From the IMG/VR virus record IMGVR_UViG_2526164631_000019: a stretch of DNA of 9,834 nt; one strand, 5' to 3'. The stretch's first letter is position 1; each line of letters begins with the position of its first letter. This document shows positions 1-9,834 of the stretch, in pieces. Made by a program: the position numbers and the translations under genes. This DNA is from a virus (taxonomy: Duplodnaviria > Heunggongvirae > Uroviricota > Caudoviricetes). The notes under the pieces were generated by a model that saw only the letters and a list, made by a program, of their open reading frames with translations, searched no databases and was not told the origin of the DNA.

Positions 1-1101
1 GCTATCCATTCCGGGATTTTTGCCTCAAGCTCAAGCTGCGTGGTAAAGCCGCTGTTATCAATGGTGTGCCCGGCTTTTGCAATAATCCAGTCCTGATTAT
101 CAATCTCGCTTTTAAATCCTGTTACCGTGCCATGCATTTCGGGGTAGAGTTCTGCTCGTCCACGTGCCAGCGTGATGGAGAATGATGCGGCTCCGCGTTG
201 TAGTTGTTGCCACTTTGCCGCCGCTGCGCGTCTTGCTGCCTGCTCGTTCTGATAAGTCTTGCGTAACACAAACACATTGCCTTCCGCGCCTTCCATATAG
301 TCACCTTCACGGCTGCTGCTTTTCTCCTTTTTTGGGTTTGGCGGTTTTACGGCGTTTTCACGTCTGACTTTTTTTCTTTTCCCGTAATTAAGATCAAGTC
401 CAGTAGGCGCGTACCCCCGTATACGCTTCGCGGTCAGCAATGCGGAACTGATGGCGATCGCCGCTGCTGCGTGTGATGGCGAACGATGGCAACGGCTGGC
501 CCTGTGCGTTCACGCCACCGCCGGGCATGATGAATAACAGATTACCGCTTTTTACCGTGGTGATTGCGCCCAGCATTTCCGCCATGCGCGTAAGGAAGGA
601 CATGTCGCTTTCTTCGGTCTGGTCGGCGTGGTCGATTTCGATATCCATCAGCATTTCGCTGATTTGCGGTTTCAGACCATACCGATGAGCGATGGCGGAT
701 ACCACACGCTCAACGGTCACATCATGCCAGGACACCTCACGTTTAACGTTAAATTCATCCCGAAAATCTGCGCTTCTGGCTGAAACAGTCAGCCTGTCCG
801 GCGGTCCTTCGTGAGCGATTTCATCAACAATGTAAGTGCCTTTTTCTGTCAGCGGTTCTCCCTTCCAGCCAATGAGAACCGTCAGGCGCGCGCCCCGTGG
901 CGGTAGCTGCAACTGACCATCCGCATCATCCAGCGTGATGGTGAGCTGGTCCGCCTCAAATCCCCGGTTGTCGGTCAGTGACAGGCTCATCAGGCGCTCT
1001 GCCACGCCTGACAGCGTTTTACCCTCCGCGAGAATATCAAAATCCGGCATTTTCACGGGGTCTGTGCCCTGACTGAGCAATTGCATGGTGGTGTCGGTCA
1101 T
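1..1101 (-). CDS. Phage tail protein D (P2 gpD / late control D family); apparent frameshift near 392-401, 3' end beyond left edge of window
   Basis: ORF 394..1233(-) contains the motif SLSLTDNRGFEADQLTITLDD, typical of the gpD family as recalled. The likely start is the ATG at 1099-1101 (MTDTTMQLL), preceded by GGGAGGGAG. The frame ends at a TGA at 394-396, but another minus-strand frame continues as DLNYGKRKK...KWQQLQRGAASFSITLARGRAELYPE...GFTTQLELE to position 1, which reads like the gpD C-terminal half. Confidence 0.8.
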
Positions 1102-1258
1102 CTGCTCCCTCCCTGTGCGGCATGGTCGCATGTGCGTGCGGAGGGGGTTACTGCTTTTTGTTGTCGCCGGGTCGGGAGAACGGCGCAGGGGTGAGATTAC
1201 GCGCGTGGTGGGTGATGATTGTTGCCGAATCATTTAACGGATACAAGGGGCTGAAGCT

Positions 1259-2442
1259 ATGAGTGAAACTCGTTTTCATGGTGCCCGTGTTACGGAAAAT
1301 ACCGACCTGGTAACAGCGATTAACGATGTTGATTCCAGCGTTATCGGTATCGTGGCAACGGCGGATGATGCGGACGCGAAGCTGTTCCCGCTGAACAAGC
1401 CCACACTGCTGACCCGCGTTAATGACGTGCTGGGAAAATGCGGGACAACGGGGACGCTTTATCGTGCGCTTAAGGCCATCGCAGACCAGGTGAGCACAAA
1501 GGTGATCGTCGTTCGCGTGGCTGAACACAAAGAAGAAGACGGAAAGACGCAGGATCAACTGGTTATCGGTGGTTCTGAGGATGACGGCAGCTATACGGGG
1601 ATGTATGCGCTGCTTGTTGCAGAGCAGGATGAAAGCATCGGATACCGTCCGCGTATTCTGGCCGCGCCGGAGCTGGACACGGAGGCGGTGACAAAATCCC
1701 TGTGCGTGATTGCGGGTAAACTGCGCGCGTTTGTGTATGCCTCATGTCACGGCTGTAACACGATGGCTGAGGCGATTACCTACCGCCAGAAATTCAACGA
1801 ACGTGAGGTGATGCTCTTATGGCCGGACTTCATCGCCTACAACCCGAAAAGTGGCAAAAACGAACGTTCCCCGCGCCTGCCTATGCGTGCGGCCTTCGTG
1901 CGTACATTGACCATGAGCAGGGATGGCACAAATCACTGTCCAACGTTCCGGTTAAAAATGTGCTGGGGATGTCGAGGCATGTGTTCTGGTCGTTGCAGGC
2001 CGAAGACAGCGATGCCAACAGCCTCAACAACAAAGAAATCACGACCATTATTCGTCGCAACGGGTTCCGCTTCTGGGGCAACCGCACACCGGAAACGAAC
2101 GCCTACATCTTTGAGGTGTATACCCGAACCGCACAGGTGCTGGCTGATTCAATTGCAGAAGCGCAGTTTGAAACCATCGACAGTCCACTGACGCCTGCGA
2201 ACGTGAAGGATGTTATCAGTGCCATCAGGGCAAAACTGGATTCACTGGTTACTGCCGGGAAACTGATTGGCGCGGAGTGCTGGTATGACGTGGTGGATAA
2301 CAGCACCACGGATTTACGTCAGGGACGTGTGCGTATTCGCTATAAATATACGCCCGTTCCGCCACTGGAAGACATGGAGCTTTACCAGACGTTTACTGAT
2401 GAATACTTTGAACCCGCATTTGCGGTGCTGGGAGGTGCCTGA
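1259..2442 (+). CDS. Contractile tail sheath protein (P2 FI-like); apparent frameshift between about 1856 and 1872
   Basis: ORF 1259..2191 carries the N-terminal two thirds (MSETRFHGARVTE...LLWPDFIAYNPKSGKNE). ORF 1819..2442 in another frame carries the conserved C-terminal part (IDHEQGWHKSLSN...RRNGFRFWGNRT...YTRTAQV...YKYTPVPPLE). The AAGGGG ribosome-binding site lies about 10 nt upstream of the ATG at 1259. Joined length is about 394 aa, typical for sheath. Confidence 0.88.
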
Positions 2443-2953
2443 TGGCTGTGCCAAAACATCTTCGCTTTTTTACGCTGTTTGTGGATGGTGAAAACGAAGT
2501 GGGTAAGGTGACGTCCGTCACTCTGCCCAAACTGACGCGCAAAACCGACAGCTACCGGGGGGGCGCATGATGGGTGCGGTAAGTATTGATCTCGGTCTGG
2601 ACGACTCCGCGCTTGATGCGAGCTTTGTCATGGGGGGCGCAGTTCGTGAGCTGTTCCTTAAGTATGGCGGCACGATTGACGGCACGCTGCTGCGTTTTGC
2701 GGGTGAATACTACACCGATGCAGAAAGCGACCTGTATGAAGTCGAAATGCGCGGACGTGTGACGGAAATTGATATGGGGGAAGCCAAACAGGGCGAAGCC
2801 ACATCACACACTTACGCCATTAAAAACACCTACTACAAGCTGAGTGTTAACGATCGCCCGTTGTGGGAGATTGACCTGCTGAACTTCATTTACCGGAAGG
2901 ACGGCAAGGACATTGTGCCCGATCGCATCCGTTCCGCGCTCGGGCTTGGCTGA
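2442..2953 (+). CDS. Tail tube protein (P2 FII-like); apparent frameshift at G7 homopolymer 2557-2563
   Basis: The ATG at 2442 overlaps the sheath stop (TGATG). The N-terminal ORF reads MAVPKHLRFFTLFVDGENEVGKVTSVTLPKLTRKTDSYRGGA and stops at 2568-2570. ORF 2567..2953 in a different frame continues GAVSIDLGLDD...LRFAGEYY...EVEMRGRVTEIDMGEAKQGE. Both parts match the FII family as recalled (VTLPKLTRK, DLGLDD, MRGR..EID.GE.KQGE). Confidence 0.85.
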
Positions 2954-2965
2954 TAAGTAATATGC

Positions 2966-2986
2966 AGGCGGCGCAGTGCGTCGCCT
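2966..2986 (+). promoter_or_regulatory. GC-rich stem-loop between tube and E genes (possible attenuator or mRNA stability element)
   Basis: AGGCGGCGC agt GCGTCGCCT gives a 9-bp stem with one G-U pair and a 3-nt loop. It sits between the tube stop (2951-2953) and the E ribosome-binding site. No U-tract follows, so it is not a classical intrinsic terminator. Confidence 0.3.
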
Positions 2987-3007
2987 CTGACTGAAAGGAG
3001 TTTCCTG

Positions 3008-3373
3008 ATGAAAGAGACGAAAAACATCGATACCGAAAACACGGTCGTTGCTGACACTGTGAAAGAAACCAGTGAGCGTGGCATAAAACTTACCCAACCA
3101 ATTGAGCGAGGCGGCGAAAAAATCACGTATGTGGAGATCACCGGAGCTATTGAGCAGGCTGGATCTCTGCGAGATTTGTCGTTGTCTGATGTGCTGAATC
3201 TGAAAGCGGAATCCATGTTTACGCTGCTGTCACGCGTGACATCACCGCGACTGGATGAAGTGACGATCAAAAAAATGGCATCCCGTGACTTTATTCAGTT
3301 ATGTGTGGTTGCCGTAAATTTTTTGAGCGGTGCGGACTCTGGCGGGAAGAACGAACAGGCGACGGAAGCCTGA
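3008..3373 (+). CDS. Tail assembly chaperone (P2 gpE-like)
   Basis: 121-aa ORF with AAAGGAG 7 nt upstream of the ATG. Its position directly between tube and tape measure is conserved for this chaperone in contractile-tail clusters. It contains the slippery heptamer T_TTT_TTG at 3319-3325. Confidence 0.75.
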   Translation: MKETKNIDTENTVVADTVKETSERGIKLTQPIERGGEKITYVEITGAIEQAGSLRDLSLSDVLNLKAESMFTLLSRVTSPRLDEVTIKKMASRDFIQLCVVAVNFLSGADSGGKNEQATEA

Positions 3374-3537
3374 TCACGGTTGTGTGCTTTGAGCACATAG
3401 AAGACTTTGTGGCAGATATTGCCGTTATTTTTAACTGGTCGCCCGCCGAAATCTTCATGATGACGCCCGGCGAAGTGGTTAGCTGGCGTGAGCGGGCGGC
3501 ACTTCGCAGCGGGAATGCAGACAATGAAGACTCTTGA
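3008..3537 (+). CDS. Frameshift-extended chaperone (P2 gpE+E'-like), predicted -1 ribosomal frameshift at 3319-3325
   Basis: The -1 frame opens exactly at the slippery site and runs to a TGA at 3535-3537, encoding FERCGLWREERTGDGSLITVVCFEHIEDFVADIAVIFNWSPAEIFMMTPGEVVSWRERAALRSGNADNEDS. Its end overlaps the tape-measure start. Confidence 0.6.
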
Positions 3538-6331
3538 TATCCGGGTCGCTTTCAGCGCCGTTGACAGGCTGACCCGGCCTGCCGAAAACGCCCGCCGCCT
3601 GATGGGGCAGTTTGGTGACTCCATCCAGCGAACGCAGGGGGCGATCAAAAATCTCGAGCGTCAGGCGCGTTCATTTGAGCGCGCCCGCGACGCTGTCAGT
3701 AAAGCGGATGCGGGTATCGTGAAAGCACGACGCCAGCTTAACGCCCTTAATCAGTTACAACGCACGGGTACAGTGCTCAGCGAAAAGCAACAAAAGCTGA
3801 TGCAGCAGTTAAGCACCCGGCTTGAACGCCTGAATGAATCGCGCACACGGGAAATTCAGAAAATGCGGGAGCTTGGCGGAGAGCTGAAACGCCACGGCAT
3901 TTCCCTGACAGGCAGCGATAGCACCATCCAGCAGGCCATCAGACGCACCGAACAGTACAACAACCAGCTTGAACGCGAACGGCAGGCGCTTGCGCGTGTA
4001 ACACGTGCGCGTGAGCGGTATTCGCGCGCGCAGGAAACCGCGGGAAAACTGAAAACAGGTGGTGCGCTGGCAATTGGTGCGGCAGCGGCTGGCAGCTATG
4101 CTGCCGGGCGTTTTTTGCAGCCTGCGATCGGGTTCGGGAAAGAGATGTCCCGCGTTCAGGCACTGACGCGAATCGACCAGAACAGCCCGCAGTTTAAGGC
4201 GCTGCGTGAACAGGCGTTAAAACTTGGCTCTGAAACGCAGTTCACTGCAGGCGATGCCGCCAGTGGGCAGGCATTTCTTGCAATGGCTGGCTTCACTCCG
4301 CAGGCCATTCAGGCTGCGCTTCCCGGCGTACTGAGCATGGCAACGGCTGGCGGTATGGATCTCGGCGAAACGGCAGATATTGGCTCAAATATCCTGACGC
4401 AGTTCGGCCTTTCTGCTGACCAGATGGACCGGGTCGGTGACACGCTCACCGCAGCGTTTACCCGTACCAACACTGACCTTCGCGCACTGGGCGAAACCAT
4501 GAAATATGCAGGTCCGGTGGCGGGCAAGCTGGGAATATCGCTGGAGCAGGCCGCAGCGATGGCGGGCGTGCTGGCGAATATGGGTATCAGGGGAAGTGAT
4601 GCCGGGACGGCAATGCGTGCCAGCCTGGCTCGTCTGGCATCACCGCCAAAGGCGGCAGCAGAGGCGCTGAAAGAGCTTGGTGTGGCAGTCTCTGACGCGA
4701 ACGGCAAAATGCGCCCGATGGAGGATGTGCTGGCTGACCTTTATAAAGCCACCCGCAAATACGGGGAAGTTGACCGGGTATCGTTCTTTAAGGATATTGC
4801 CGGAGAAGAGGCTTTCACATCATTTATGGCCCTCGTTGATGCGGCAGGTGACGGCTCCTTACCCAAACTGAGAAAAGAACTTGAAGGCGCGCGCGGTGAG
4901 GCTGAACGCACAGCAAAGGTTATGGCCAACAACCTTGACGGCGATCTGAAATCACTCGGCAGTGCATGGGAAGGGGTGCGCATCCGCATTGCAGATCTGA
5001 TTGACGGTCCGCAGCGTTCTGTCACGCAGTGGCTCACGCGGGTGGTATCGAAGGTGACGGCGCTGGCGCAGGCCCATCCGGCACTGACGCGCCAGCTACT
5101 GGTTGCAGGCGGTGCTCTGCTGGCAATGACTGCAACCATAGGCTCGTTGTCGCTGGCTATTGGTGTGCTTGCTGGCCCACTGGCAAAACTGCGTCTTGGT
5201 TTTTCCCTCCTGACCGGATCATTGAATGTTGTCAGGGTTCTGCCTGCATTATGGGGAATGGTGACGGGTTCCATTTCGTTACTGGGAGGCGCTATCGGGG
5301 CGCTGTTCAGTCCGGTCGGATTGATTGCTGCTGCGTTTGTGGCTGCGGCGGTTCTCATCTGGAAATACTGGGAACCCATCAAGGCGTTTTATGCAGGGGT
5401 GTTCAGTGGGATTATGGAGCGACTGGCCCCGTTGCGCGAAACCTTTGAACGGTTTGGCCCTGTTTTTGACGCAATCGGAAGCGGGATCAGCCAGGTGTTT
5501 AACTGGTTTAAATCGCTGCTGTCACCGATGGAGTCCAGCAAGGAAACGCTGGATAAATGTACCAGTGCTGGCGAGATATTCGGTAACGTTCTTGGCGGTG
5601 CGTTACAGCTTGTTCTGACACCTGCAAAAATGCTACTGGATACGCTGGCGTGGATACTTGAAAAACTCGGTGTGCTTCCGGATGAAGCGGAAAGGGCGCG
5701 CAAGAAAATCGAAGACGCACAGCGTGCGGCCATTCTTCAGGACAAGGTTGCCTTGCTTCAGGGGGACCTGGCGAAAATCAATCTGCCGAAGCCTGTGGAA
5801 AATGGCAATGGCACCGGAGGTGATAAACCCAAAGACAACAAACCGCTCACAGACAGCAATACCGGTACGCTACGCAGACTCAGCAAAATTGCTGATAACA
5901 CAGGTAAGCTGGTTGATGAGACGAAAAAACGCATTGGCCCCGGCGATATTGTCTTTAAGAACCTGCCCCGCGCACTTGCTGTTCGTGGGGAGTGGCAGGA
6001 GCGGAAGATTGCGCAGGTCAGTAAGCCTGCTTCCGCAATCAACATCACACCCGTGGTCCCGACTCCTCTGCCTCCGGCGCTGGTCCCTGTTGTTGCGGCC
6101 AGCTCCCGCCCGGTGGCGGAGGCCATACGATCGCCAGTGGCATCAGTTCCTGCAACTTCCCGTAACCGGGAGCCTGTTGTCTCCGGATTTGGCGGTGAAA
6201 TTCATGTTCATCTGCATAACGTTGTTACGCAGAATCCCCGCGAACTGGCGAAACTGGTCGGTGAAATGGTCAGGGCAGAATTGGAACGACGCGACCGTGC
6301 CGGACGTGGCAGTTTTTACGATAAAGATTGA
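3515..6331 (+). CDS. Tail tape measure protein (P2 gpT-like)
   Basis: Uninterrupted ORF of roughly 940 aa. The N-terminal region is rich in charged, coiled-coil-like sequence, the central region has long Gly/Ala/Leu-rich hydrophobic stretches and the C-terminus is Pro-rich, which is typical for tape measure proteins. Candidate starts are GTG 3488, ATG 3515 and ATG 3524; the exact start is uncertain. Confidence 0.9.
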   Translation: MQTMKTLDIRVAFSAVDRLTRPAENARRLMGQFGDSIQRTQGAIKNLERQARSFERARDAVSKADAGIVKARRQLNALNQLQRTGTVLSEKQQKLMQQLSTRLERLNESRTREIQKMRELGGELKRHGISLTGSDSTIQQAIRRTEQYNNQLERERQALARVTRARERYSRAQETAGKLKTGGALAIGAAAAGSYAAGRFLQPAIGFGKEMSRVQALTRIDQNSPQFKALREQALKLGSETQFTAGDAASGQAFLAMAGFTPQAIQAALPGVLSMATAGGMDLGETADIGSNILTQFGLSADQMDRVGDTLTAAFTRTNTDLRALGETMKYAGPVAGKLGISLEQAAAMAGVLANMGIRGSDAGTAMRASLARLASPPKAAAEALKELGVAVSDANGKMRPMEDVLADLYKATRKYGEVDRVSFFKDIAGEEAFTSFMALVDAAGDGSLPKLRKELEGARGEAERTAKVMANNLDGDLKSLGSAWEGVRIRIADLIDGPQRSVTQWLTRVVSKVTALAQAHPALTRQLLVAGGALLAMTATIGSLSLAIGVLAGPLAKLRLGFSLLTGSLNVVRVLPALWGMVTGSISLLGGAIGALFSPVGLIAAAFVAAAVLIWKYWEPIKAFYAGVFSGIMERLAPLRETFERFGPVFDAIGSGISQVFNWFKSLLSPMESSKETLDKCTSAGEIFGNVLGGALQLVLTPAKMLLDTLAWILEKLGVLPDEAERARKKIEDAQRAAILQDKVALLQGDLAKINLPKPVENGNGTGGDKPKDNKPLTDSNTGTLRRLSKIADNTGKLVDETKKRIGPGDIVFKNLPRALAVRGEWQERKIAQVSKPASAINITPVVPTPLPPALVPVVAASSRPVAEAIRSPVASVPATSRNREPVVSGFGGEIHVHLHNVVTQNPRELAKLVGEMVRAELERRDRAGRGSFYDKD

Positions 6332-6337
6332 GGAGTC

Positions 6338-6832
6338 ATGGCCATGATGATGATCTACGGCATGTTTGTTTTTGAGCTGCGCACATTGCCGCATCAGCAG
6401 TTACAGCAAAATAAAAGCTGGCGGCATGTGAAAAATGAACGCGTTAACCGTTCAGCAAGCTGGCAGTATATCGGGGCAGGCGATGATCGCATCGTGCTTT
6501 CTGGTGTGCTTTATCCTGAAATCACAGGTGGCGAAGTGTCGCTGTCGCTGCTGACCACGCAGGCGTATACAGGACGCCCCTGGCCTCTGATTGATGGCGT
6601 CGGACAGATTTACGGCATGTATGTACTGACTGAAACGAATACGACCCGCTCCGAGTTTGATCGCTACGGTAAGGCGAAAAAGATAGAATTTTCACTGACT
6701 CTTGAACGCTGTGATGAGGATTTGCGGGAGCGCCTGCAATCCTCATCGTTCAGTGATATGCTGTCCGGCTTCAAAGATAAGGTCACATCATCCCTTAACA
6801 GCGCGGCCAGCTCCGTTAAAGGGCTGTTTTGA
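6338..6832 (+). CDS. Tail protein U (P2 gpU-like)
   Basis: The product begins MAMMMIYGMFVFELRTLP and contains WRH...LSGVLYPEITGG...WPLIDG...IYGMYV...RSEF, matching gpU as recalled. GGAG at 6332-6335 favours the ATG at 6344 as the true start. The gene follows the tape-measure stop directly. Confidence 0.85.
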   Translation: MAMMMIYGMFVFELRTLPHQQLQQNKSWRHVKNERVNRSASWQYIGAGDDRIVLSGVLYPEITGGEVSLSLLTTQAYTGRPWPLIDGVGQIYGMYVLTETNTTRSEFDRYGKAKKIEFSLTLERCDEDLRERLQSSSFSDMLSGFKDKVTSSLNSAASSVKGLF

Positions 6833-6839
6833 TTAACGC

Positions 6840-6869
6840 AAAACCGCTAATGGTCAGATTAGCGGTTTT
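6840..6869. terminator. Hairpin terminator between convergent gpU and invertase genes
   Basis: AAAACCGCTAAT ggtcag ATTAGCGGTTTT is a perfect 12-bp stem with a 6-nt loop, followed by a T-rich run (cattttcc) on the plus strand. It starts 8 nt after the gpU stop and overlaps the last codons of the invertase ORF. Confidence 0.6.
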
Positions 6870-7458
6870 CATTTTCCTGAGTCTGCCTGGTTGTTTCTTC
6901 AGCCTGTATATCGCCTACAGGGTGATAACGATAAATCGTCGATATGCCGATGTCGTAAATGATCGCCAGTTGTTTCCTGTCATGACCGTTTTTAATCAGC
7001 CTCGCTATTTGCTCGTGTTGTTCTTTTGTCAACTTCGGGCGACGTCCGCCAATGCGTCCTTGTGCGCGTGCTGCTGCCAGCCCGGCCAGTGTACGCTCTA
7101 CAATTAATTCACGTTCCATTTCGGCTAAAGCTCCCATGACGTGAAAAAAGAAACGCCCCATGGGTGTTGATGTGTCAATGCTGTCCGTTAGACTACGGAA
7201 ATTAACACCTTTTTCCCGCAATTCCTCAATAAGCGTGATCAGGTGTTTCATACTTCTGCCCAGTCTGTCCAGCTTCCAGACAACCAGCGTATCTCCTTCT
7301 GATAGCGTTCTGAGCAGTTTTTTCAATCCCGGTCTGGCTGATTTCGTTCCGCTGATTTTATCTTCAAAAATCAGTTCACATCCTGCGCACTCCAGCGCGT
7401 TACGCTGCAATTCTGTATTCTGGTCATTTGTTGATACGCGGACATAGCCAATAAGCAT
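6859..7458 (-). CDS. Serine site-specific DNA invertase, Hin/Gin/Cin/Pin family
   Basis: The 199-aa product begins MLIGYVRVSTNDQNTELQRNALECAGCELIFEDKISG and contains TLVVWKLDRLGRSMKHLI, FRSLTDSIDTSTPMGRFFFHVMGALAEMERELI and GGRRPKLT, nearly identical to Gin/Hin over the catalytic domain as recalled. The catalytic Ser is at position 9. A C-terminal helix-turn-helix region follows, then a tail of about 15-20 extra residues. Confidence 0.95.
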   Translation of the reverse strand: MLIGYVRVSTNDQNTELQRNALECAGCELIFEDKISGTKSARPGLKKLLRTLSEGDTLVVWKLDRLGRSMKHLITLIEELREKGVNFRSLTDSIDTSTPMGRFFFHVMGALAEMERELIVERTLAGLAAARAQGRIGGRRPKLTKEQHEQIARLIKNGHDRKQLAIIYDIGISTIYRYHPVGDIQAEETTRQTQENENR

Positions 7459-7513
7459 GATGGATCCCCTGAATAAAAACCGGGGATGATGCCAGTTAGC
7501 CGTAATCTCTGCA

Positions 7514-7539
7514 TTTTCTTAAACGTTGGTTTAGGAGAA
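7514..7539. repeat. Crossover site 1 for the invertase (hix/gix/cix-like 26-bp site)
   Basis: TTTTCTTAAACG TT GGTTTAGGAGAA. Its reverse complement TTCTCCTAAACC AA CGTTTAAGAAAA resembles the hix consensus TTCTTGAAAACC AA GGTTTTTGATAA. The central dinucleotide is at 7526-7527, 68 bp from the invertase start codon. Confidence 0.8.
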
Positions 7540-7884
7540 GCGGCAAAACGGAATGTGGGCACAGGAGATAATCAGATACCGGATATGGGAGCATTCGCTT
7601 CTGGTTCGGGATGGTTCAGGCTACCAGGTGGATATATTGTTCAGTTTGGCACTTTTGCAGGAAACACGACCCGCTTTATCAGTGGACACTTCCCTATACC
7701 ATTCCCTAATCAGCCGATGGTTTCAGTCAGTGTTATGTCTGATGCCGTTCAGTCAGACCCGTCGATTCCTGCCCCGCAGGTTTTGTCTGTAAATTTTGAA
7801 CATATCAGTAATTCAGCGTGGCGTGTGGCAACCAGTGATATCTCACAGCAATACAGATTCAGTTATATTTCGATAGGACGGTAG
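7528..7884 (+). CDS. Silent alternative tail-fibre C-terminal cassette (no start codon of its own; expressed only after inversion)
   Basis: An open frame starts at the crossover core and encodes [62 protein letters not shown]...[12 protein letters not shown], ending at TAG 7882-7884. The first codons (GGT TTA GGA GAA = GLGE) match those just inside the site in the expressed fibre gene. A tail-fibre assembly gene follows 2 nt downstream. Confidence 0.7.
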   Translation, partial: [118 protein letters not shown]

Positions 7885-7886
7885 AA

Positions 7887-8327
7887 ATGCAGAAATATAT
7901 TTTCAGTGCCGATAAAAATGCGTTTTTCCCTGTGGAGCTTAAAATCGCTTATCAGGAATCCGGCGAATGGCCCGATGATGGAATCGAAATTGACGACACT
8001 GTTGCTGCCGAATTTATGAAGGAAGCACCAGAAGGAAAATACAGAGGTGTCATCGACGGAATGCCTGCATGGATTGATATTCCACCGCCAACTCATGAGG
8101 AACAAATTGCCGCAGCCGAACTGAAAAAGCAGCAATTGATTAATCAGGTCAACGAATACATAAACAGTAAGCAATGGCCTGGTAAAGCGGCGATTGGTCG
8201 CCTGAAAGGTGAGGAACTGGTGCAATATAATTTGTGGCTGGATTATCTGGACGCACTGGAACTGGTCGATACTTCCGGTGCGCCAGATATTGAATGGCCT
8301 ACGCCTCCGGCAGTTCAGGCCAGATGA
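7887..8327 (+). CDS. Tail fibre assembly protein (Tfa), partner of the silent cassette
   Basis: 146-aa ORF with AGGA 8 nt upstream of the ATG. The C-terminus LVDTSGAPDIEWPTPP is the Tfa-type motif also found in the convergent Tfa (TDTSTAPDVIWPELP). Its position directly after a fibre cassette fits the role. Confidence 0.85.
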   Translation: MQKYIFSADKNAFFPVELKIAYQESGEWPDDGIEIDDTVAAEFMKEAPEGKYRGVIDGMPAWIDIPPPTHEEQIAAAELKKQQLINQVNEYINSKQWPGKAAIGRLKGEELVQYNLWLDYLDALELVDTSGAPDIEWPTPPAVQAR

Positions 8328-8892
8328 CATCCGGTGCGGTGCTGGTATCTGTTGCCGTCACCGCGTCAATATAATCCAGCACAGCGTTAAGTCGGGTGTT
8401 TTCTGGCTGCGTCAGCTTCCGCACGGCCTGTAATTTCAGTTGAATCAGACTGATGGAAGCCATTGCAGCATCAATCAGCGACTGGCGCTTTACTTCTGCC
8501 GCGTCTAGTGCGGCGCTATGCTGTGCCTCGGTATCCGTCACCCATTTCTCACCATCCCATTTATCGTATGGCGTTAACGGTGAAAGCGTGACATAACCGT
8601 CTTTGATGGCACCGATATAATCCACTGTAACAGCTGCGCCATTTTCGATTGAGTAAACAGTCTCATTGCGGTGGTCTTCTTCATGGCTCCATCCCTTACC
8701 CGTAAATACTGCCACTCTTCCCGGAATGTATTCGCCCGGGTCAATACCAGTGGAACAAGCGGGCATACTTACGCCAGTATTAATATATTCATCAGACCAG
8801 CCAGTATATTCATACGTAACTGCCTCATAATAAAAACAACGCATATTACCCGGTACTGTAGCCAGCCCATTTTCATCAAAAACAGGTTTCAT
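8299..8892 (-). CDS. Tail fibre assembly protein (Tfa), partner of the currently expressed fibre C-terminus
   Basis: 197-aa ORF whose ATG overlaps the fibre stop codon by 1 nt (TAATG). The C-terminal motif is TDTSTAPDVIWPELPEA. It lies inside the invertible segment. Confidence 0.85.
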   Translation of the reverse strand: MKPVFDENGLATVPGNMRCFYYEAVTYEYTGWSDEYINTGVSMPACSTGIDPGEYIPGRVAVFTGKGWSHEEDHRNETVYSIENGAAVTVDYIGAIKDGYVTLSPLTPYDKWDGEKWVTDTEAQHSAALDAAEVKRQSLIDAAMASISLIQLKLQAVRKLTQPENTRLNAVLDYIDAVTATDTSTAPDVIWPELPEA

Positions 8893-9834
8893 TATTTAGC
8901 CCTCACTAGAAAGTTAAATGCAATATTTCGTGGGCGGGTTTCTGTACCTACATTTCCACTAATTTCACCATAACGTTTAACGCTACGAGAGCTAATAGCT
9001 CGTAGTGAGGAAGGCACCCTAAGACCGGGTTCGTCCGTTTTAACTATTCCCCCGTCACCATATGTAGCCAGTATTCCTGGGTTTACTCCTTCCCGTGTAC
9101 TTCCTGCGACAAGCCCGTCCCCCGTCCACAATTCCATATTGTGTGCATGATCCATAATTGTGTGTGATTGCCCTGAAAGTAGGGTACGTCCGACATCAAT
9201 CCCGCGTCCGTCATCCCAGATACGAATGAAATCACCGCGTGCGTCAGGTAATGCCAGCGCCGGAAACACTTTCGCCAGCACAGGGTAATCAGTGGCAGAG
9301 AATTTCGCGCCGTTGAACTTCAAAAACACCATGCTGGACCAGCTATCGATTACGGTATCTGGCATTGCTGCGGACGGCCAGAAGAACGGAACGCCAATAG
9401 CTGGAGCACCTTCTCCCAAACCAAGGTAATCAAGAACTCCCTGAGTGCTGGTTTTACCAAGAATGGCACGTCCAACACTTGTCAACGCGGTTAACGCGGC
9501 ACGATCTGCCCCTGTAAAATATGGGAGTTTATCTGCTGATGTAGCAAGCTCCGCCAGCGCCGTCAGGGTGGCATCCTTCGGTTGCTTACCCGCAAGCGCG
9601 TTAGTCATGGTGGTCGCAAAATTCGGGTCATTGCCCAGCGCCGCAGCCAGTTCGTTCAGCGTGTTCAGTGCATCAGGTGACGAATCTACAAGTGCGGCAA
9701 TCGCAGCCATAACGAAAGCCGTGCTTGCGATCTGGGTACTATTAGTCCCCTGTGGCGCTGTTGGTGTTGTTGGCGTTCCGGTCAGTGCCGGGCTGTTTAA
9801 TGGTGCTTTCTTGTTCGTTTCATCCATTACCGCC
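8892..9834 (-). CDS. Tail fibre protein (P2 gpH-like constant region fused to variable C-terminal domain); 5' end beyond right edge of window
   Basis: The frame is open to the window edge, so the Met at 9827 is internal. The constant part (DETNKKAPLNSPALTGTPTTPT...NTLNELAAALGNDPNFATTMTNALAGKQPKDATLTALA) resembles P2-type fibres as recalled. The part downstream of the crossover site contains a tail-collar-like motif (LPDARGDFIRIWDDGRGIDVGRTL). Confidence 0.9.
   Translation of the reverse strand, partial: AVMDETNKKAPLNSPALTGTPTTPTAPQGTNSTQIASTAFVMAAIAALVDSSPDALNTLNELAAALGNDPNFATTMTNALAGKQPKDATLTALAELATSADKLPYFTGADRAALTALTSVGRAILGKTSTQGVLDYLGLGEGAPAIGVPFFWPSAAMPDTVIDSWSSMVFLKFNGAKFSATDYPVLAKVFPALALPDARGDFIRIWDDGRGIDVGRTLLSGQSHTIMDHAHNMELWTGDGLVAGSTREGVNPGILATYGDGGIVKTDEPGLRVPSSLRAISSRSVKRYGEISGNVGTETRPRNIAFNFLVRAK
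9411..9436. repeat. Crossover site 2 for the invertase, inside the fibre coding sequence
   Basis: TTCTCCCAAACC AA GGTAATCAAGAA is inverted relative to site 1. The half-site inside the segment matches the reverse complement of site 1 at 11 of 12 positions, and the core AA is identical. On the minus strand it encodes VLDYL-GLGE with the core in codon positions 2-3, the same phase as at site 1. Confidence 0.8.

Follow-up and report, generated by a model that had tools for sequence, protein, structure and literature searches.

Genes of the window and its relationship to P88

The window, which is the whole stretch of DNA analyzed here, comprises 9,834 nucleotides. Gene identities and strands were assigned using the list of open reading frames, Pfam and tblastn with the proteins of phage P88, and they agree with an earlier note on this DNA, as do the spacers at both ends of the tail block (Table 1). 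The genes FI, FII, E, T and U (1259-6832, plus strand) diverge from gpD on the minus strand and converge on a gene for a serine invertase (6859-7458, minus strand). With homologues of FI, FII, E/E', T, U and D all present, the window contains the contractile tail module of a P2-like phage (Peduoviridae). The Pfam scores were above the cut-off for PF04984/PF17482/PF22671, PF04985, PF10145 and PF06995; the truncated D fragment reached a score of 28.1 against PF05954 with a cut-off of 30.1. The last few codons of gpD fall beyond the left edge of the window. PF21882 and PF02413 are the basis for the assignment of the fibre/Tfa cassettes. In the RefSeq annotation of a 99.7%-identical relative, E and E' are called 'tail protein' and 'GpE family phage tail protein', and the counterpart of H is a 'phage tail protein' (L001 28890-30554).

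Table 1. Positions of genes and predicted features in the window.
Feature	Position	Strand	Basis or remark
gpD (late control D / tail hub protein)	start codon 1099-1101, runs past left edge	-	PF05954; 92.7% identity to P88 gpD
D-FI spacer	1102-1258		divergent, 157 bp
Predicted pD -10 hexamer GACCAT	1122-1127	-	35-40 nt past the other end of the dyad; predicted start ~1115
Candidate activator dyad, Ogr/Delta/B type	1162-1179		TGTCGCCGGGTCGGGAGA; TGT-N12-AGA
Predicted pF -10 hexamer GATGAT	1214-1219	+	35-40 nt past the dyad; predicted start ~1226
FI, tail sheath	1259-2442	+	PF04984/PF17482/PF22671
FII, tail tube	2442-2953	+	PF04985
E, tail assembly chaperone pair with E'	3008-3373	+	96.7% identity to P88 E
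E' extension, tail assembly chaperone pair with E	3382-3537	+	
T, tape measure protein	3524-6331	+	PF10145; 96.6% identity to P88 T over 935 aa
gpU, tail protein, final gene of the inverted block	6338-6832	+	PF06995; 99.4% identity to P88 U
U-invertase spacer	6833-6858		convergent
Predicted bidirectional intrinsic terminator	6840-6869		A run, 12-bp stem, T run (terminator scan)
Serine DNA invertase, Hin/Gin/Cin/Pin type	6859-7458	-	PF00239 + PF02796; 86% identity to P88 invertase
Alternative fibre tip	7486-7884	+	
Invertible fibre segment	7514-9436		1.9 kb; two 26-bp sites in inverted orientation
Left site	7514-7539		TTTTCTTAAACGTTGGTTTAGGAGAA
Alternative Tfa	7887-8327	+	
Tfa	8299-8892	-	
H, fibre gene	8892-9834 and beyond; 5' part off right edge	-	ORF 8892-9827; tblastn P88 H residues 290-430
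Right site	9411-9436	-	TTCTTGATTACCTTGGTTTGGGAGAA

Three of the tail genes are interrupted by single-base indels in the window copy. The reading frame of gpD is broken by four single-T insertions at positions 345, 355, 363 and 399, called relative to NZ_CP077479, whose D gene is an intact ORF of 369 aa. Using tblastn, residues 1-261 of P88 gpD were found in frame -1 (1101-316) and residues 235-362 in frame -2 (398-3). A deletion of 1 nt within an A run at about 1862 splits FI into the overlapping ORFs 1259-2191 and 1819-2442, and P88 FI matches two frames. In FII, 1 nt is deleted within a G run at about 2564, and P88 FII matches with residues 1-42 in frame 3 and with residues 40-170 in frame 2. 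P88 does not have these frameshifts. All three had been overlooked by the earlier note.

An E. coli O111:H2 chromosome matches the window with 99.7% identity across the full window length, and collinearity over at least 80% of the window was found in 139 genomes. The phages P88, 500465-2, P884B11 and Citrobacter Shae_phiSM are collinear with the window at 93-95% DNA identity; P88 covers 79% of it, since the fibre tip and Tfa cassettes differ. The tail proteins of the window show 92-99% identity to their P88 counterparts (tblastn), and P88 proteins show 30-54% identity to those of P2. On the strength of its DNA identity to P88-type genomes, with which it is collinear, the window belongs to a P2-like prophage of E. 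coli of the P88 type (genus Xuanwuvirus, Peduoviridae). Phage P88 is inducible and lytic, and PhiSM gives plaques and lysogens (PMC5285337; PMC6456863).

Orientation of the FI-U block in P2-like phages

The P2 record shows the order V W J I H G, fun(Z), FI FII E T U D ogr on a single strand, and Fels-2 likewise has the P2 order. The window deviates from this arrangement, in which H and G are followed by FI FII E T U D in the same direction, because its genes FI to U run opposite to H, G and D. The inversion of sheath to U relative to P2, which had been proposed from the sequence of the window, was thus confirmed. The same layout is present in the annotation of P88, where H G, G' H' and the invertase are followed by U T E' E FII FI on the other strand and then by D.

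The frequency of the two arrangements was determined in complete E. coli genomes. Of 5426 such genomes, 1356 (about a quarter) carry the native D-FI junction, whereas the alternative junction, corresponding to the P2 order, was found in none of the 1412 E. coli genomes that matched the test query. An additional survey covered 80 loci from genomes of other species, which were compared by the identity of their gpD to P88 gpD. All 29 loci whose gpD reaches an identity of 61% or more to the P88 protein, spanning about 15 genera, carry U-T-E-FII-FI opposite to the D strand, so that the block diverges from D and converges on G or on the invertase; at identities of 54% or less, the P2 order was found in every locus showing the block. 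Of 521 phage records, 397 place U next to D on the same strand, and this adjacency is the widespread state across the Peduoviridae.

Taken together, these comparisons of gene order indicate that the FI-U orientation of the P88 type is, with near certainty, fixed throughout the lineage. The layout is already known as the standard order of a common, sequenced and cultured phage lineage. The synteny comparison suggested in the earlier note identified the inverted order as the norm among P88-type relatives, and the unusual rearrangement of this particular locus that the note had implied was refuted in the way the note itself had foreseen, as intact close relatives share the order (P88, PhiSM, the 1356 E. 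coli genomes and the 29 loci). Its second option, a different ancestral arrangement, turned out to be right for the P88-type lineage, in which close relatives with intact genes show this arrangement as the norm. The orientation could also be an assembly error or a rearrangement private to this genome and tied to the decay of the prophage, as the interrupted tail genes might suggest. This reading has a negligible probability, since phages sequenced independently and over 1300 complete genomes have the same order with intact genes, and since the indels are point changes unrelated to the order of genes.

Relative to the otherwise conserved P2 order, the operon FI-FII-E-E'-T-U would have been inverted once, long ago, and then fixed in the clade. 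A single inversion is the most parsimonious explanation, and a history of several steps may also account for the layout. Nucleotide-level mapping of the breakpoints is not feasible, since the proteins of the closest relatives that retain the P2 order are only about 50% identical.

Instead of an inversion in place, illegitimate recombination with another phage could have brought in a foreign tail module in the reverse direction. P2-like genomes are mosaic, and H, G, I and J depart from the identity pattern of FI, U and D, both of which fit such an acquisition. A foreign block is nevertheless unlikely, as the distance of the FI-U proteins of P88 from P2 and Fels-2 does not exceed that of D or of the head proteins: the identities to P2/Fels-2 are 42-48% for FI, FII and U, 49-54% for D, and 41-51% for Q, P and N. 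Furthermore, the identities of FI, of U and of D each split the 80 loci into two groups with zero overlap. Because the three proteins give the same two groups, the block and D share a common inheritance.

A published description of the FI-U inversion was not found in the literature covered, which was incomplete and in which that on Xuanwuvirus yielded nothing relevant. The P88 paper mentions neither the inversion nor the orientation nor the invertase; in the PhiSM paper the word 'inversion' is absent and the invertase is mentioned once. A paper on Xenorhabdus tailocins and another on a Burkholderia P2-like phage deal with inversions of the fibre region or IS repeats only.

The invertible fibre segment and the serine invertase

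A pair of inversely oriented 26-bp sites lies inside the fibre gene and encloses the alternative fibre tip, the alternative Tfa, Tfa and the current fibre tip. The junctions of this segment are found in both states among E. coli genomes, flipped in 10 and native in 4. With an invertase, inverted sites, fibre/Tfa cassettes and both orientations, 7514-9436 has all the features of a segment of the Hin/Gin/Cin/Pin type.

As the invertase gene directly abuts the FI-U block, it was considered whether the enzyme flips this block of about 5.7 kb as well, either as a switch or in a recent event, using a secondary site in the D-FI spacer. A scan for identity to the 26-mer invertase sites indeed gave the best non-self match of the window in this spacer (1155-1180, 17 of 26 positions). 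As a recombination site this match was rejected: out of 300 random sequences with matched composition, 122 reached 17 or more identical positions, and the central dinucleotide is CC, in contrast to TT in the real sites. In its orientation it would pair with the right fibre site at 9411-9436 and not with a block boundary. At the right boundary of the block (6780-6900) no partner site is present, with a maximum of 14 of 26 positions. When a third invertase site was sought by pattern, allowing up to 3 mismatches, the query site itself was the sole match, and a generic repeat search comparing the two block boundaries gave only short inverted matches of chance grade, e.g. 960-978 with 7469-7487. 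The block boundaries consequently show no pair of inverted sites. The earlier note had reported no site at the left boundary; this holds in so far as there is no real site, but the chance-level match at 1155-1180 had been missed. The search of both boundaries for repeats, also suggested there, was carried out with the chance-grade matches described above as its sole result.

The distribution of the two arrangements also speaks against a switch. Both orientations of the block were not seen (0 of 1412 for the alternative junction compared with 1356 genomes with the native one), whereas the real fibre switch shows both states. An invertase match was absent in 25 of the 29 inverted-block relatives within the fetched DNA, which extended up to 10 kb on each side of gpD, and present in 4 of 29. 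Conversely, Fels-2 and three other loci with an invertase retain the P2 order. An inversion of the block by the adjacent invertase is therefore very improbable. The invertase flips only the 1.9-kb fibre segment, and the inversion of FI to U is not programmed and was not made by the neighbouring fibre invertase. This is in agreement with the earlier note, which had seen no evidence for the invertase as the cause. The counts of the D-FI junction, the distribution within the clade and the scarcity of the invertase point to one old inversion that was fixed independently of the enzyme.

Predicted transcription signals of the inverted block and comparison with known systems

For the analysis of the D-FI spacer, an alignment with 29 related loci and a profile anchored on the dyad were used. 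The late promoters of P2 are Ogr-dependent and have the consensus TGT-N12-ACA (PMC3931495). The dyad of the window differs from this sequence by one mismatch, and 25 of the 29 relatives contain the exact TGT-N12-ACA at the aligned position, 74-89 nt from the ATG of FI. Two Providencia loci have TCT-N12-AGA. The variant dyad CTTTTGTTGT...AGAAC is also present in the O-P (pP/pO) spacer of this prophage type itself (L001 38955-38976). The distances from the dyad to D (40-111 nt) are unreliable, because the D starts of distant loci were extrapolated imprecisely from tblastn; the dyad-anchored profile avoids this problem.

Beyond both ends of the dyad the profile contains predicted -10 hexamers of the type nAnnAT, and A36, A39 and T40 are the sole conserved distal positions. 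On the FI side 28 of 29 sequences have these bases at these offsets, and on the D side 26-27 of 29 do. The aligned sequences are kin, and part of the conservation could be inherited instead of selected; outside of the conserved positions the spacer is nearly unalignable, which counts against mere inheritance. The distance from the end of the -10 hexamer to the dyad centre is 49.5 nt for pF of P2 and 48.5 nt for the predicted pF of the window. The geometry of predicted -10 hexamers and dyad in the window equals that of pP/pO and pF of P2, for which annotated start sites are available. The predicted pD would have a leader of about 13 nt with the ribosome-binding site GGAGG ahead of the ATG of D. 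A scan of the window with the sigma-70 consensus gave matches not above those in shuffled sequences and none in the D-FI spacer, as expected for late promoters that depend on an activator. A gene similar to ogr/Delta adjoins D in the 99.7%-identical relative, outside of the region covered by the window.

These sequence features suggest, with a probability only somewhat above even, that the D-FI spacer is a bidirectional late promoter. A palindromic site of the Ogr type would be positioned about 56 nt upstream of two divergent predicted starts and would switch on FI to U rightward (pF) and D, probably together with ogr, leftward (pD). A single site of P2 that serves the divergent promoters pP and pO provides a parallel for this arrangement. 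We infer the binding of Ogr to the dyad and the activity of both promoters from sequence, in the case of pD from conserved geometry alone. It is also somewhat more likely than not that the inversion of the F operon deprived D of its promoter and uncoupled its translation from that of U, and that the Ogr palindrome of pF became a mirror-symmetric bidirectional promoter, which would have made D-ogr autonomous and activated by its own product.

At the other end of the block, the predicted terminator is situated between the convergent genes for U and the invertase, with the right arm reaching into the 3' end of the latter. RNAfold calculated -18.2 kcal/mol for the 70 nt past the stop codon of U. 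In many relatives GC-rich hairpins follow U as well, although these are non-homologous. The F operon would end at this terminator and meet the invertase gene and the fibre operon head-on. The account as a whole, a P88-type prophage with an old, fixed and non-programmed inversion, a bidirectional late promoter and a bidirectional terminator, is in our view very likely correct.

For annotation this means that a divergent D/FI pair beside an invertase should not be taken as a rearranged or invertase-flipped prophage. The order of FI to U versus D is a clean marker which sets the P88-type clade apart from phages of the P2, 186 and Fels-2 types. The value as a discovery is small, since the layout is ordinary for its lineage. 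If the proposed Ogr promoter is true, a palindromic activator site would have allowed an inversion to split an operon while late regulation was kept.

The gene order and strands of P88, 500465-2, P884B11 and PhiSM are the same as in the window. Fels-2 (Felsduovirus; Salmonella), whose proteins are about 40-54% identical to those of P88, also contains an invertase and an invertible fibre/Tfa segment between G and the tail operon, and its Hin-family invertase is 73% identical to the P88 enzyme. In contrast to the window, and despite the likewise placed invertase module, FI FII E E' T U D ogr are located on one strand in Fels-2; the genes U and D overlap by 4 nt there, and a separate promoter for D is lacking. 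The tail genes of P2 are homologous to those of the window, but an invertase is absent from P2, and G and FI are separated by fun(Z). In P2, the dyad ahead of FI works in one direction only, and the F operon ends with D. The similarity of the 1.9-kb fibre segment to the Mu G, P1 C, e14 P and Salmonella H segments (Gin, Cin, Pin and Hin) is confined to 7514-9436 and does not extend to the FI-U block. The layout of the D-FI spacer matches that of pP/pO of P2: both have one dyad of the type TGT-N12-(A/C)CA with -10 hexamers 35-40 nt past each end, and in both cases the starts are about 55.5 nt from the dyad centre, the hexamers and starts of the window being predicted ones. As far as shown by the literature searched, the putative bidirectional D-FI promoter would be a second pP/pO-like unit, undescribed for P88-type phages.

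Gene map and relatives of the prophage

The features of the window were mapped with an ORF list, a Pfam scan and tblastn with phage P88 proteins, and the coordinates and strands given in an earlier note were correct.

Features of the window and predicted signals
Feature	Position	Strand	Remark or basis
gpD (late control/tail hub)	left edge to 1101	-	
D-FI spacer	1102-1258		
Predicted pD start	about 1115	-	
Predicted pD -10 GACCAT	1127-1122	-	dyad-anchored conservation
Ogr-type dyad (TGT-N12-AGA)	1162-1179		spacer alignment
Predicted pF -10 GATGAT	1214-1219	+	dyad-anchored conservation
Predicted pF start	about 1226	+	
FI sheath	1259-2442	+	
FII tube	2442-2953	+	
E / E'	3008-3537	+	
T tape measure	3524-6331	+	
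gpU	6338-6832	+	
U-invertase spacer	6833-6858		
Hairpin	6840-6869		12-bp stem between A run and T run; ends F operon
Serine invertase	6859-7458	-	
Alternative fibre tip	7486-7884	+	
Alternative Tfa	7887-8327	+	
Tfa	8299-8892	-	
Fibre H	8892 to right edge	-	

The hairpin behind gpU could, judged from its structure, terminate the transcripts of U and of the invertase alike; many relatives carry other, differing hairpins at the same position. The two convergent Tfa genes overlap at their 3' ends by 29 nt (8299-8327) and have in common an 18-nt inverted repeat (89%; 8237-8254 and 8363-8380), which encodes the conserved C-terminal motif of both proteins (LDYLDA / LDYIDA).

A prophage of E. coli O111:H2 strain 12A is 99.7% identical over the whole window length, and at least 80% of the window is collinear in 139 complete E. 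coli genomes. Collinearity extends, at 93-95% identity, to Escherichia phages P88, 500465-2 and P884B11 (Xuanwuvirus, Peduoviridae) and to Citrobacter phage Shae_phiSM. The element belongs to a phage lineage that is known, has been cultured and is classified. The layout in the P88 annotation is exactly that of the window, and RefSeq annotates the closest chromosome in the same way, with FI, FII, E, E', T and U intact. P88 is an induced phage which lyses E. coli (PMC5285337), and PhiSM is released spontaneously, forms plaques and lysogenises K-12 (PMC6456863), so the inverted arrangement is compatible with a fully working virus. The earlier note had described the sheath-to-U block as inverted relative to P2 or as a different ancestral arrangement; the implied reading as an unusual rearrangement of this locus did not hold, since the same order is the norm in close relatives with intact genes. 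Public annotations already show this order, and no comment on the FI-U inversion was found in the literature searched. A P88-type prophage whose gpD shares 99% identity with the E. coli phage protein was also located on a 226-kb contig labelled Vagococcus sp. WN89Y, a Gram-positive (NZ_JBQPOM010000071.1); this label is probably due to assembly contamination or mislabelling.

Compared with the 99.7%-identical E. coli genome, D in the window carries four extra T residues, inserted singly within 55 nt (345-399); FI and FII have each lost one nucleotide, from an A run at 1862 and from a G run at 2564, respectively. The reading frames of all three genes are broken by these indels, and the frameshifts are seen against P88 too. 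They could be real decay of this prophage copy or sequencing errors of the long-read homopolymer type, and are unrelated to gene order. In the locus of the relative (NZ_CP077479, L001), PGAP gives gpD as a shortened 266-aa 'VgrG/Pvc8 family' CDS (L001 19988-20788) plus a pseudogene fragment. Because an intact 369-aa D ORF is open at L001 21097-19991, this looks like a start-site annotation problem and not a broken gene.

Inversion of the FI-U block relative to P2 and Fels-2

The annotated record of P2 bears out the order used as reference: V W J I H G, fun(Z), FI FII E E' T U D ogr, with all genes on a single strand. In Fels-2 the series H G, G' H', invertase, FI FII E E' T U D ogr likewise lies on a single strand, with a U/D overlap of 4 nt; the flipped FI-U block is the sole layout difference between it and the P88 type. 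Using a gpD alignment as query, 80 loci were taken from a collection with one genome per bacterial species, and J, I, H, G, invertase, FI, FII, E, T, U, D and ogr were placed on them by tblastn. In all 29 loci with a gpD at least 61% identical to that of P88, U-T-E-FII-FI runs on the other strand from D and ogr; these loci are spread over Salmonella, Kluyvera, Kosakonia, Enterobacter, Klebsiella, Providencia, Xenorhabdus, Photorhabdus, Rouxiella, Dryocola, Hafnia, Citrobacter, Morganella, Pectobacterium and Yersinia. Where gpD identity was 54% or less, all loci that showed the block have the P2 order. Identities of FI, U and D each gave the same two-way split without overlap. With a chimeric query of U plus D(1-200), 397 of 521 phage records, with hosts ranging from Escherichia to Burkholderia, Ralstonia, Pseudomonas and Vibrio, showed U and D side by side on the same strand; only P88-like records split the match in two. 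An origin of the block as a foreign module was rejected, since the FI-U proteins of P88 are as distant from P2/Fels-2 as D and the head proteins. The simplest reading is a single ancient inversion that defines the clade.

Unlike FI, U and D, the baseplate genes J and I gave identities that did not set the inverted clade apart from phages with the P2 order; G of P88 is 95% identical to its P2 counterpart, and H 65%. The fibre/baseplate region therefore seems to have recombined independently of the tail-tube module.

Invertase sites and the fibre switch

The FI-U inversion was not made by the invertase and is not a switch. The site scan, the sparse invertases and population junction counts all uphold the earlier statement that evidence for an invertase-made inversion is lacking. 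Within the fetched DNA (at most 10 kb on each side of gpD) an invertase was seen in only 4 of the 29 inverted loci, and it is present in Fels-2 and three further loci with P2 order. The true sites (7514-7539, +, and 9411-9436, -) flank the 1.9-kb fibre/Tfa segment. The best non-self match in the window, TTTTTGTTGTCGCCGGGTCGGGAGAA at 1155-1180 (17/26), was rejected as an invertase site: a score of at least 17/26 was reached by 122 of 300 composition-matched random sequences and is thus chance-level, the core is CC instead of the TT of real sites, and a site-identity scan of the window found no partner at the right boundary of the block. Its location inside the D-FI spacer is a curious coincidence; it overlaps the Ogr-type dyad, whose AGA half-site, the source of the resemblance to GGAGAA, is specific for the P88 subgroup.

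Of 5426 complete E. coli genomes, 1356 contain the native D-FI junction; an artificial P2-order junction, built from the 5' end of D and the 3' end of U, occurs in 0 of the 1412 with any query match. In the positive control, 10 genomes carried the fibre segment 7514-9436 with its junction flipped and 4 with the native junction. Switching of this segment is real, and the flipped form, in which H is fused to the alternative tip 7514-7813, is commoner than the orientation in the window.

A putative bidirectional late promoter between D and FI

The inversion would have severed D from its coupling to U and from pF, the inferred rightward late promoter of FI-U, so D would need its own signals. Spacers of the window and the 29 clade loci are nearly unalignable apart from a central dyad, TGT-N12-ACA, the consensus of P2 late promoters dependent on the zinc-finger activator Ogr (PMC3931495). 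It is exact in 25 of 29 clade loci; TGT-N12-AGA stands in its place in the window and the two relatives closest to it, and TCT-N12-AGA in two Providencia loci. When the spacers were lined up by the dyad, conservation at distal positions was confined to A36, A39 and T40 on both sides (28/29 on the FI side, 26-27/29 on the D side). From this conservation they may represent -10 hexamers (nAnnAT) 35-40 nt past each dyad end. A short leader bearing GGAGG lies between the predicted leftward start and the D ATG, and ogr adjoins D downstream in the 99.7%-identical relative.

The same variant motif, CTTTTGTTGT-N-AGAAC, occurs in the O-P spacer of this prophage type (L001 38955-38976, outside the window). 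About 32 kb of prophage-covering locus contains three matches, with 0.65 expected by chance, and two of them sit in the two divergent late spacers, D-FI and O-P; the exact TGT-N12-ACA is absent throughout the late region of this prophage (L001). The motif distribution suggests that Ogr of the P88 subgroup prefers an asymmetric TGT...AGA site.

Taken as a whole, the single dyad in the D-FI spacer would serve a bidirectional late promoter, with pD driving D leftward and pF driving FI-U rightward. Such a pD/pF arrangement may be undescribed and would be a direct analogue of pP/pO of P2, whose annotated starts lie in the same geometry 55.5 nt to either side of one dyad; the distance from the pF -10 end to the dyad centre is 49.5 nt in P2 and 48.5 nt here.
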